64,000 bases of DNA from Candidatus Gottesmanbacteria bacterium. GTDB taxonomy: Bacteria; Patescibacteriota; Microgenomatia; UBA10105; UBA927. The notes beneath the pieces were generated by a model. That model had not been told where the DNA came from. It saw nothing but the letters and a program-made list of their open reading frames with translations, and ran no database searches. The stretch spans positions 576,696 to 640,695 of the forward strand of contig CAWBPL010000002.1 in the NCBI GenBank assembly GCA_963790805.1. Direction: 5' to 3'. Every line of letters starts with the position of its first letter. Within the stretch, counting starts at the first letter, position 1. Shown in pieces: positions 20,792 to 23,700 of this stretch. Made by a program: the position numbers and the translations under genes.

Positions 20792-23700
20792 GTGTTGATA
20801 TATCCTAAAAATACTGTGCCAGGATGTATCGCCCGGTTTTTTAGCGTTTCATACAAACAGCATCATGCTTCTCAAAAAGAGCTTCACCATCCTACAGTAT
20901 GTACCACTTCTTTACCTATTGATATAGATAAAGATCAACGCGGGTTTATACAGTTTTTACCACTTATTCTTTTGGCGCTTTTTGCATCGGCAATTTTTCT
21001 TATTGTGAATCAGGTGCAACGGCAGAATCAGGATGTGCGAAGTAAAGCGGCATATCCAACAACGCCCGCAGAAACGGTTACTCAGACTCAGACTCAAACT
21101 CAAACGCCGACTCTTGCGCCATCATATAAGATTCCGAATATTAACGAAGGCTGCGATTCGGGGTATCGTCAATCGGGTCTCAATTGTACCCGCATTACCT
21201 CAACTCCGACTCTTGCGCCAACATATACGATTCCGAGTCACAATGAGGGATGCGGCACAGGATACCGTCAATCAGGTCTTACGTGTACTCTCATTACTTC
21301 GGCGCCGACGCCTCCGCTTGTGAAGACACCGAATCCGCAAGGAGGGTGCGGTTCCGGGTACCACTCATTTGGTTCAAATTGTATCATTAATAGCGCAAGT
21401 ACCACGACATTGGCTCCTTTGACCACGCTATTGCCGATAAAAACGCCAACTTCACCGCCGTCAACACCCACGCAAGCGCCGGCAAAATCATGCATCTTAT
21501 GGATATTCTGTTCATCAGGTAATCCTCCTGCTACCCCGACGCCAAAAGAAAGCGGGACACAAACTTCAGTGACCAATCCCATAAGCAATGCTCTTACGGC
21601 AATCGGCGGCACAGTTAACGGAATTGTTAACGGCTTGGCATCAGTAGTCGGCCTCCCGCCGCCAATCTCTTTGCCAAGCGTTTCAAGTTTTGTTGCAGGG
21701 ACGGCAATCGCAACGCCGTACGGAGAAAAAGCGATTGAAACGATACGAGTGGGGGACACGGTGCTCTCTTTTGATCCAAAAACAGGCACAGTAACCGGCG
21801 AAAAAGTTACCGGCCTTATTGCTTATACAAGCGATCAGTATTACATACTGAAATTTGATAACGGAACGGTTATGCGCGTTACCGGACGCCACCCGATGTA
21901 TCGCGGATGGGGATATCAGTCAAAGTATCGCGACGTGCTGACGGGACAACCGCAGCCGCGGGGATTTGAGGCCGTATTACATCTGGTAAAAGGAGATACG
22001 CTTTATCGGTTAACAAAAACATCTGATGAGAAGCAAAAACTTATACCTGTTCGTATCACTTTTATAGAGAAAGTACCTATTGCGATACAGGTATATAACC
22101 TGCGGGTTGCCGGATTGAACACCTATTTTGCACAGGACATTGCTGTTCATAATAAAAGTAATTTATCTTCAGTACCGCCGATAACACCAAAGCCCGGATC
22201 TTTCGGATCGTTGAATAATTCAAAACTGACCATCAATCCTAATATTACTGTTGGTCCAATACAGCCGAATACACCTCCCGGAACAATAAAGAACGGCACG
22301 ACGGTAAATCTCAATAATAATTTAAGTGCACCGATCACTTTGAACCTTCCGACACCGACCCCGAAGCCCTGCTGGATGGATTTGGGTGCATGTTTGAGCA
22401 GGGGTCTCACGAACGTTGTTCCGGGGGGATTAACATCCATTTTCCCAACCGGTGCGCCGACCTCTGCACCAACGGCAGCACCAAAAGCGACGCCTACTCA
22501 ATACTCCAGTGAAGGGTTTGTGGGTGGGAACGATACGCGGAATGTTCAGATGGGGGTAAACGAGTTTTTTGGTGCATCCGCCGGCAACTACAACTTCACC
22601 GCTCCGAAATCGGTTCCAAATCTGGGGGGTGGTACCTCCATGGTTTCAGATATTATTCAAGCCGGCACGACAAACGTAAAAGTAGGTCAGGTGATTGTTT
22701 CAACGACAAATACCATAAACGGACCGATTACGAAAACCGATGTTTACATAAACAATCCGACAACAAATCAACCTGAACTAAAATTGTCCTCATCAACACA
22801 AAATAATAAGGTATTGCCGACAGTAGTGGCGCCACCAACCACGGGCGCGTCCACGACGCCAGCGGGCGGATTTCCCGGTTTAACAAGTCCGACGGTTGCG
22901 CCCACTCCCGATGTGAAGACATATCAGGGTTGTATGGCGAGCATGAAAAATGCTCCATCGGCTGAACAACGGGATGCGTGCAGCGGTCTTCCGAACGCCA
23001 CACCGACCATACCACCGACTATCTCATCAAGTCCGACACCGGCAGCCTTACCGACTATAAATCCACTGCCGACCATTGAGGTAGTTCCGCCCGTTCCTTC
23101 TGTGACTCCGGAGCCGAGAGTTGTTTTAACCGGACCGCACGGGTGTGGCGGAGGTATAAAAGGCGGTGACGTCGTGGTGGGTCCGAAGAATCATGCGTAT
23201 GAATGTAACGGGCAAACGGGATTGTACGTTGATCGCACCACCGGTTTGGATAATAACGGAAATCCGGTTCCCGGTGGAGGCGGGTATACGTTTGCTGATC
23301 TCACGATAACAGGCGGTATCCTGCCGACGGATCAAACGGCGCTTGCCATGAATGGTGCTGCGCTTACGGCAAATAATCCCAAGGCAAAATCGGGAGGGGC
23401 ATCGTGTGCTGGTGGCGCACCAGGAGTATCGGTTTCCAGCGGAGTGGTTGCAGAGGGCGGTCGGGCGGGCGGCAGGGCGAAGTGTGACAACGGTACGTGG
23501 GTAGATTGTCCGACATGTTTATTTACTCCAGAGTATGCGCCGGACTGGACAAAAGATCCGAACTCGCCGCTTTACAGCGCCTATCAGCAACAAGTAGCTG
23601 CGCAGCAGAAGGCCCAAAACGATGCGCTGACCATATTTAATACGAAATTAAATTCATGTGTACAGGGTGGAGGAACCACCGATAGCTGTAATCAACAGGC

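Follow-up and report, generated by a model that had tools for sequence, protein, structure and literature searches.

What does a Hint domain, a fold known for self-cleavage, do directly behind the N-terminal anchor of a giant bacterial membrane protein? The question is raised by a stretch of 64,000 nucleotides from Candidatus Gottesmanbacteria (contig CAWBPL010000002.1, positions 576,696 to 640,695; hereafter the window), in which one uninterrupted open reading frame (ORF) encodes a protein of 12,323 residues with a Hint domain at residues 299-454. A first-pass annotation of the window had read this domain as a device that would release some 11,900 residues from the membrane. Our analysis shows that the domain is real and conserved and that its chemistry is well known, but that the consequence drawn from it is not upheld. 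The reading that we favour, at somewhat better than even confidence and by analogy with characterised relatives, is that the domain acts as an extracytoplasmic single-turnover autoprotease in a juxtamembrane stalk, related to A-type bacterial intein-like (BIL) domains and to PT-HINT domains.

Identification of the Hint domain

The features on which the identification depends are listed below; the subfamily mentioned there is described in the following section. Residue numbers are uncertain by at most eight, as in-frame start candidates are found at 20792 (GTG), 20795 (TTG) and at codon 9 (GTG). The sequences before and after the domain are referred to as N- and C-extein.

20792-57763, plus strand: giant Hint-bearing ORF, uninterrupted, 12,323 codons according to the ORF listing
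21686-22153, plus strand: Hint domain (A-type BIL-like), residues 299-454, 156 residues, from profile, model and fold search
21686-21688, plus strand: Ser299 (codon AGT), block A nucleophile at position 1, aligned to Cys1 of relatives
21881-21892, plus strand: block B, T364-G-R-H367 (TxxH), T and H invariant in the subfamily
21899-21967, plus strand: conserved subfamily insert after block B, residues 370-392, pattern Y.G..Y.S...D.LTG.PQ..GF
22091-22153, plus strand: blocks F and G, VYNLRVAGLNTYFAQDIAVHN, ending in H453-N454; V, N, G, TYFA and AVHN invariant in the subfamily
22154-22156, plus strand: Lys455 (codon AAA), +1 residue of the C-extein

The translation of 21686-22153 starts with SFVAGT, contains IETIRVGD and TGRHP, and ends in VYNLRVAGLNTYFAQDIAVHN followed by Lys, which reproduces the blocks, the Ser at position 1, the terminal His-Asn and the +1 Lys quoted in the first-pass annotation. 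That annotation had also proposed a comparison with Hint, PT-HINT and intein profiles. On a fragment of 256 residues, PT-HINT (PF07591) scored 33 bits (gathering threshold, GA, 27.7; E 8e-8) and Hint_2 28.6 bits (GA 28.4), and the Intein_splicing and Hint models stayed below threshold (PF01079, 19.6 bits versus a GA of 29.7). The PT-HINT score drops below the GA in longer context, to 26.8 bits on 1,003 residues and 18.6 bits on 4,900 residues, and two close relatives (P0124 and P0136) reach 26.5-26.8 bits. As the subfamily thus lies at or under the Pfam thresholds, it is missed by automated annotation.

An AlphaFold2 model of the domain is all-beta, with a pLDDT of 83.4 and a pTM of 0.77; the low pLDDT at residues 370-392 arises because the alignment used in modelling did not contain the insert. 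A Foldseek search of this model against the PDB gave as best matches the BIL domains 6y75 and 2lwy, mini-inteins and Hedgehog (1at0), all with a probability of 1.00 and TM-scores of 0.63-0.88. The top match was the Tetrahymena BUBL BIL2 domain (6y75; E 1.3e-9, 22% identity). The BIL domain of Clostridium thermocellum (2lwy) reached a TM-score of 0.83 at 29% identity and is also the nearest solved structure by sequence (E 1.7e-16), with which the BIL comparison suggested earlier turned out positive. Profile, model and fold search agree on the same residues, and the beta-fold together with blocks A, B, F and G, including a position-1 nucleophile, TxxH and a penultimate His, confirms residues 299-454 as a Hint domain of the HINT superfamily.

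With 156 residues the domain has the size of a mini-intein and therefore no endonuclease insert, as had been stated. It is the single Hint domain of the protein and of the window; a search of the protein and of the six-frame translation of the window found no second one, either near the C-terminus or elsewhere. A mobile insertion, as judged by composition, was rejected, since the GC content of the domain (0.459) matches that of its flanks (0.474 and 0.515) and GC3 is likewise close to the flanks.

Conservation of the catalytic positions

When 1.84 billion cluster representatives were searched exhaustively with phmmer (E<=1e-3), 4,118 relatives of the domain were obtained, the closest of which (P0124, P0125, P0130, P0136, P0137, P0144 and P0146; 43-56% identity) form one tight subfamily. 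The choice of query mattered: no relative came up when contigs were scanned with this one Hint sequence, and a word-indexed protein search, started first from the single domain and then from the subfamily alignment, yielded nothing but distant PT-HINT small toxins and none of the true subfamily. Loci were detected with the subfamily alignment in a genome and metagenome scan, namely L001 (contig CAYGFH010000002.1 of a metagenome-assembled genome, 250 kb), L002 and L004 (both Candidatus Gottesmanbacteria), L003 (Patescibacteria) and L054-L057 (groundwater and other metagenomes). By sequence this is a previously unannotated Hint subfamily, found in Microgenomates/Gottesmanbacteria-like bacteria belonging to the candidate phyla radiation (CPR). 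No link of Hint domains with CPR bacteria or with giant proteins was found in the searchable literature library.

Across 12 subfamily members (40-56% identity), the Thr and His of block B and the terminal His-Asn do not vary. Position 1 is Ser in ten members and Cys in the other two, and the +1 residue is Lys in all except one. Ser1 is combined with the +1 Lys in the window, L001, L002, L003/P0146, L054-55/P0125, L056/P0144, L057, P0124, P0130 and P0137; L004 has Cys1 and Lys, P0136 has Cys1 and Gln. The Ser1 codons are always AGT or AGC, one substitution away from the Cys codon TGT, and no orthologue carries a non-nucleophile at position 1. Because only AGY codons, one step from TGY, are used, the exchange between Ser and Cys appears to be under selection for a nucleophile at this position. 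All members also carry the ~20-residue insert behind block B (Y.G..Y.S...D.LTG.PQ..GFE), which is absent from the PT-HINT toxins and from the C. thermocellum BIL domain.

In a wider sample of the 150 nearest cluster representatives with 467 domain matches, position 1 is Cys in 317 domains, Ser in 13 and Gly in two. Ser1 is thus in the minority (13/332), as the first-pass annotation had remarked, but it has precedents in 8w20, a protein of 1,368 residues whose Hint domain starts with AHSFPAGT, and in the cysteine-less Ser1 intein 9hth. The Thr of block B is found in 332 of 348 domains, the His in 345 of 349 and the terminal His-Asn in 321 of 325. Lys occupies the +1 position in 256 of about 310 domains (~82%), versus one in 75 in the PT-HINT small-toxin family obtained by the word-indexed search, where this residue is Ala, Ser, Gly or Thr. 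Judging from these counts, the +1 Lys is a signature of the nearest Hint clade and not an accident of the giant gene.

Orthologues and gene neighbourhood

The giant gene lies immediately 3' of the genes for Rho and an M23/LysM peptidase in L001 and L004, and in L004 a DUF2298 gene is also found upstream, in the same order as in the window. Identities to the proteins of the window are 67% (L001) and 82% (L004) for Rho, 66% and 61% for the M23 peptidase, and 48% for DUF2298 (L004). The giant genes of L001 and L004 are therefore orthologues of the one described here. Synteny and best matches also place the window, very probably, in a Microgenomates/Gottesmanbacteria-like CPR genome. Three orthologues run off the fetched sequence: that of L004 has at least 3,937 residues, that of L001 at least ~3,750 across a scaffold gap, with 42.6% identity to residues 1259-3251 of the window protein, and that of L055 at least ~3,800 across a frameshift. 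The Hint domain occupies the same position in the syntenic orthologues, and every orthologue found carries it. Within the first ~450 residues, only the transmembrane helix and the Hint domain align between the window and L001 and L004. This matches the BIL pattern of a conserved domain inside variable secreted proteins (PMC7765530).

Members of the subfamily share a common plan: an N-terminal helix with a family motif, a Q-rich stretch leading to R-x-x-A, a hypervariable spacer of 70-400 residues rich in Cys, Pro and Thr, one Hint domain, a Pro/Thr linker and a long variable region.

In public assemblies, a run of N or frameshifts within low-complexity Pro/Thr stretches interrupt the orthologous giant genes (L001, ~11100-11186; L054, 6872-6993; L055, 11779-12133). 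Each gene is consequently predicted there as a series of shorter proteins, such as P0125 with a listed length of 538 residues. The genome containing L001 is labelled 'uncultured Gammaproteobacteria', despite its synteny and its Rho and M23 identities with the window, which itself matches the Gottesmanbacteria locus L004; on this evidence the label is probably wrong. In the window, Rho and the M23 gene are separated by two ORFs without family match (6114-9085, minus strand) and by an ORF of 3,060 residues (9112-18294, minus strand) with two N-terminal MerR-type helix-turn-helix domains, collagen triple-helix repeats and Laminin_G_3. Since Rho and M23 are adjacent in L001 and L004, the ORFs between them look like an insertion.

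Position of the domain relative to export signals

Ahead of the domain lie the following features:

20942-21010, plus strand: N-terminal signal-anchor helix, residues 51-73; Kyte-Doolittle 2.56 (hydrophobic core at residues 53-71)
21011-21685, plus strand: N-extein spacer, residues 74-298; Pro/Thr-rich, with three C-x11-C loop repeats (~residues 111-205)

The core of the helix is located ~226 residues before the Hint domain. A sole transmembrane helix about 225 residues ahead of the domain had been noted before; it is indeed the only N-terminal helix, but the protein has further membrane segments (see below). It carries the family motif G-F-[VIF]-Q-x-[LI]-P-L, followed by a conserved Q-rich stretch (residues 74-85) that ends in R-x-x-A. 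The helix motif is conserved in L001, L003, L004, L055-L057, P0125 and P0144, and in each locus scanned (window, L001, L003 and L004) it is confined to the giant gene. The spacer is not conserved in orthologues.

The family N-terminus as a whole (window 20942-21046; L001:8769, L003:8332, L004:8368) consists of a basic leader ending in Gly, the F-[VI]-Q-x-[LI]-P-L motif with the hydrophobic helix, and Q..Q....R-x-x-A. Its sequence resembles a class III (pilin-like) export signal, or one specialised in some other way, and may include a peptidase site. A prepilin-type (class III) signal at the N-terminus of the window protein was rejected, as no Pfam or NCBIfam model matched; P0125 gave only a faint ComGE match (14.9 bits, cutoff 49). 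An antisense ORF of 173 residues (21268-21789, minus strand) runs opposite the N-extein and the first part of the Hint domain; given the conserved coding frame on the plus strand, it is almost certainly spurious.

The first-pass annotation had regarded the N-terminal placement of the domain as exceptional. Of the closest cluster representatives, 138 begin with Met. A hydrophobic segment precedes the first Hint domain in 110 of these (80%), the first Hint starts within 100 residues in 83, and the median start is residue 60. An N-terminal, signal-proximal Hint domain is thus the norm in this clade, and the notion of an exceptional placement does not hold. In three subfamily members (P0136, P0137 and L002) a classical cleavable signal peptide (...ANA|Q, ...VFA|Q) ends 6-7 residues ahead of the Hint domain, which puts the domain outside the cytoplasm; the Cys-rich and Pro/Thr-rich flanks also count for this location. 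The same signal peptides show that removal of an anchor cannot be the sole or universal role of the domain.

Membrane segments and topology of the giant protein

The C-extein contains predicted membrane segments of its own, according to a Kyte-Doolittle hydropathy scan:

25664-25801, plus strand: hydrophobic Ala/Val/Gly-rich segment (LIKGAIPA...), residues 1625-1670; candidate membrane segment or hairpin in the C-extein
33146-33202, plus strand: strong transmembrane helix in the C-extein, residues 4119-4137; Kyte-Doolittle 2.95
54647-56845, plus strand: about nine hydrophobic segments forming a multi-pass membrane region, residues 11286-12018

With these segments the C-extein would by itself be an integral membrane protein. 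Cleavage at the Hint domain would consequently open a doubly tethered extracellular arm and would not free the ~11,870 residues that follow. The proposed release of the giant polypeptide is thus not supported, and of the anchor-release device there remains the part that a cut would separate anchor and stalk from the body of the protein.

The segment at residues 1625-1670 is conserved (LIKGAPVAAV... in L001, LIQGAGPAAV... in L004), and in both orthologues Cys residues cease ~230-260 residues later. In the window protein, 48 of ~67 Cys residues lie in residues 1-2000 and about four in residues 2001-11000. The switch in Cys content after this segment may reflect a change of topology or compartment within one polypeptide.

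Apart from the Hint domain, Pfam matches in the giant ORF are limited to a NAGPA phosphodiester glycosidase (34436-34948, residues 4549-4719), five FHA stretches (~37955-47425, about residues 5720-8880) and a weak GNAT match (53495-53791), all of them between the same two membrane segments (residues 4137-11286). The last ~284 residues (56909-57760) follow a Pro/Thr linker and contain eight Cys and the motif HEMLH (HExxH) at 57341-57355 (residues 12184-12188), which suggests a zinc metallopeptidase-like domain. Pfam and NCBIfam searches returned no match for this domain and assigned no family to the N-extein or to the multi-pass region.

Proposed self-cleavage and alternative explanations

If the domain is an autoprotease as we propose, its action might proceed as follows, each step being deduced from the sequence and from the reactions of characterised relatives. 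The N-terminal helix (residues 53-71) would start export of the downstream chain. In the folded domain, T364 and H367 would assist an N-to-O acyl shift at the Ser298-Ser299 bond; hydrolysis of the ester so formed would amount to N-cleavage. Separately or in addition, Asn454 would cyclise to a succinimide with the help of His453 and break the Asn454-Lys455 bond (C-cleavage). Lacking a +1 Cys, Ser or Thr, the domain should yield more cleavage than ligation products. As a result, anchor and stalk (residues 1-298) would be parted from the rest, Lys455 would become a new N-terminus, and the Hint domain itself may be excised. In the giant protein the C-extein would stay in the membrane by its own helices, with the N-terminal tip freed on an extracellular arm; in short members without a further helix (P0130 and P0146), the same cut would release the protein from the cell.

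This sequence of events is in line with what is known of BIL domains. Where the +1 nucleophile is missing, their products arise mostly by N- and C-cleavage (PMC7664689), and A-type BIL domains cleave C-terminally through their terminal Asn (PMC7664689; PMC7765530). The earlier judgement that protein splicing is unlikely without a +1 Cys, Ser or Thr therefore stands, and by analogy self-cleavage at the N- or C-terminus is the expected chemistry, as it had been put.

Several observations speak against this reading. Members with a signal peptide 6-7 residues upstream need no Hint domain to shed their anchor. The conserved R-x-x-A, 10-14 residues past the helix, could be a peptidase site, and if it is used, the Hint domain would be redundant for anchor removal. 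NAGPA domains are normally extracytoplasmic and FHA domains normally cytoplasmic; both share one segment between membrane helices here, so one of them is on an unusual side. The block F Asp of class 1 inteins is Asn in the window protein (VYN), although the active C. thermocellum BIL domain likewise has Asn. Finally, the near-invariant +1 Lys is not accounted for by a simple cleavage model.

The last point leads to the alternative that the domain is excised and its flanks are re-joined without a +1 Cys, Ser or Thr, so that the anchor stays and only the Hint domain is lost. The alpha-amine freed by Asn cyclisation might attack the Ser299 ester, or the epsilon-amine of Lys455 might do so, giving an isopeptide-branched product. 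The +1 Lys signature of the clade, as opposed to its rarity in PT-HINT toxins, fits such a route, and the best structural match, BIL2 (6y75), does form a Lys-epsilon isopeptide bond (PMC8616854). Furthermore, ligation by BIL domains without nucleophilic side chains has reportedly been observed (Aranko 2013, cited in PMC7664689). However, BIL domains mostly cleave (PMC7664689), P0136 has Gln at +1, residues 1-1003 contain no ubiquitin-like flanks, and an element that removes itself to no net effect would hardly be expected to last, with host-like divergence, between hypervariable flanks. We regard re-joining as unlikely. Its particular form in which the +1 Lys is the nucleophile that resolves the position-1 (thio)ester, with an isopeptide bond between the N-extein and the side chain of Lys455 in the same chain or, in trans, of lysines in neighbouring molecules, seems slightly less likely again. 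If true, bacteria would splice or cross-link proteins at their surface through isopeptide bonds and independently of ATP, as a prokaryotic parallel to the Tetrahymena BUBL BIL2 reaction, and tandem Hint arrays joined by HNK-G(n)-C (see below) could also be explained. The Ser299 ester might also be resolved by an external amine or hydroxyl of the cell wall or of lipids, by which the C-terminus of the N-extein would become covalently bound to the envelope, much as in Hedgehog or sortase reactions. In favour of this, Hedgehog Hint domains stop after the first acyl shift, with cholesterol as acceptor (PMC7664689), the domain here is juxtamembrane and extracytoplasmic, and a gene for an M23/LysM peptidoglycan hydrolase is conserved immediately upstream. 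Against this, the N-extein would be a poor cargo, being hypervariable, already anchored and, in P0136 and P0137, reduced to 6-7 residues after removal of the signal peptide; the invariant terminal His-Asn implies a C-terminal cleavage that is absent in Hedgehog, and a sterol-recognition-like extension is missing. Envelope transfer is accordingly considered improbable.

A Hint fold without catalytic activity, retained in the stalk for structure or binding, would be compatible with Pfam scores near or under the thresholds, and the conserved loop at residues 370-392 could serve as a binding surface. Degenerate Hint domains normally lose their catalytic positions, whereas here these are invariant, or exchanged only between Ser and Cys, at 40-56% identity, and this explanation appears quite improbable to us. 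Least of all do we expect a selfish mini-intein inserted in the gene, to which little more than fold and size would point and whose likelihood we put close to nil: there is neither a +1 nucleophile, this residue being Lys455, nor a homing endonuclease, the flanks are hypervariable instead of a conserved active site, GC and GC3 resemble those of the flanks, the domain sits at the same position in syntenic orthologues, and its nearest relatives are BIL and PT-HINT domains.

Self-cleavage in the stalk thus remains our preferred reading, and it has consequences beyond this locus. Giant surface and membrane proteins of CPR bacteria (Patescibacteria) are almost entirely uncharacterised, and a conserved N-terminal self-processing module would offer a concrete, testable step in their maturation. 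In addition, a Ser1, cysteine-independent and extracytoplasmic Hint domain could be of use as a redox-insensitive self-cleaving tag.

Comparison with known systems

PT-HINT provides the best Pfam match, and with it a proposed role in the autoproteolytic release of a C-terminal part. Small PT-HINT toxins, composed of a transmembrane helix, a Hint domain and an HNH-type toxin, are 30-35% identical to the window Hint domain. In contrast to these, the domain described here is not located beside a C-terminal toxin: 11,869 residues follow, in which Pfam and NCBIfam searches detected no toxin family, and the +1 residue is Lys instead of Ala, Ser, Gly or Thr. A large family of metagenome proteins from the ENA (P0001-P0120, ~250 residues) has an N-terminal transmembrane helix, a Gly/Ala-rich segment, a PT-HINT domain (Cys1; Ala, Ser or Gly after the His-Asn) and a short toxin domain of HNH or restriction-endonuclease-like type (AHH, LHH, GHH or Tox-REase). 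To judge by this architecture, they are minimal polymorphic toxins, and their order of anchor, Hint and cargo follows the same logic as the giant protein.

Hedgehog (Hog domain, 1at0) shares the fold and the first acyl-shift chemistry, but it lacks the terminal Asn cleavage, has a sterol-recognition extension and processes an N-terminal domain as its cargo, whereas the domain here ends in His-Asn followed by a Pro/Thr linker. The Tetrahymena BUBL BIL2 domain (6y75, 6tmm) offers a possible parallel, since its thioester is resolved by the epsilon-amine of a lysine (PMC8616854), which may be compared with the +1 Lys here. Unlike the window protein, it comes from a eukaryote, is located in the cytoplasm and has ubiquitin-like domains on its flanks; no ubiquitin family match was obtained in residues 1-1003 at E<=1.

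Tandem Hint arrays belong to the same HN|K clade (30-40% identity) and likewise carry Hint domains directly after an export signal, but differ by Cys1, by several Hint domains per protein, by the absence of the subfamily insert and by a Tim44 (PF04280) partner. Proteins of this family comprise a signal peptide, two to five Hint domains joined by H-N-K-G(n)-C, a Gly-rich linker, a transmembrane helix and Tim44-like domains. They occur in Legionella, Verrucomicrobiota, Planctomycetota and Micrarchaeia; examples are L014:9494-11713 (Legionella rowbothamii), L012 (Micrarchaeia), L009, P0121, P0123, P0127 and many other phmmer relatives. The HN|K signature that these widespread arrays have in common with the giant protein hints at an unstudied junction chemistry.

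The closest parallel in our view is the A-type BIL domain, reportedly the subject of Amitai et al. 2003 and Dassa et al. 2004. With that of C. thermocellum (2lwy), the window domain shares the Hint fold, a nucleophile at position 1, TxxH, the VYN of block F and the terminal His-Asn. Like A-type BIL domains in general, it has neither a +1 nucleophile nor an endonuclease and is sited in a hypervariable part of a secreted bacterial protein. It differs from described BIL domains by Ser1 in most members (Cys1 in BIL domains), the near-invariant +1 Lys, the ~20-residue insert after block B, a conserved juxtamembrane N-terminal site in giant CPR membrane proteins and sub-threshold scores against existing profile models. 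As A-type BIL domains are defined by a C-terminal His-Asn without need for a +1 Cys, Ser or Thr (PMC7765530), this ending and the hypervariable location assign the domain to that type as far as its sequence can be compared, and by analogy cleavage is predicted.

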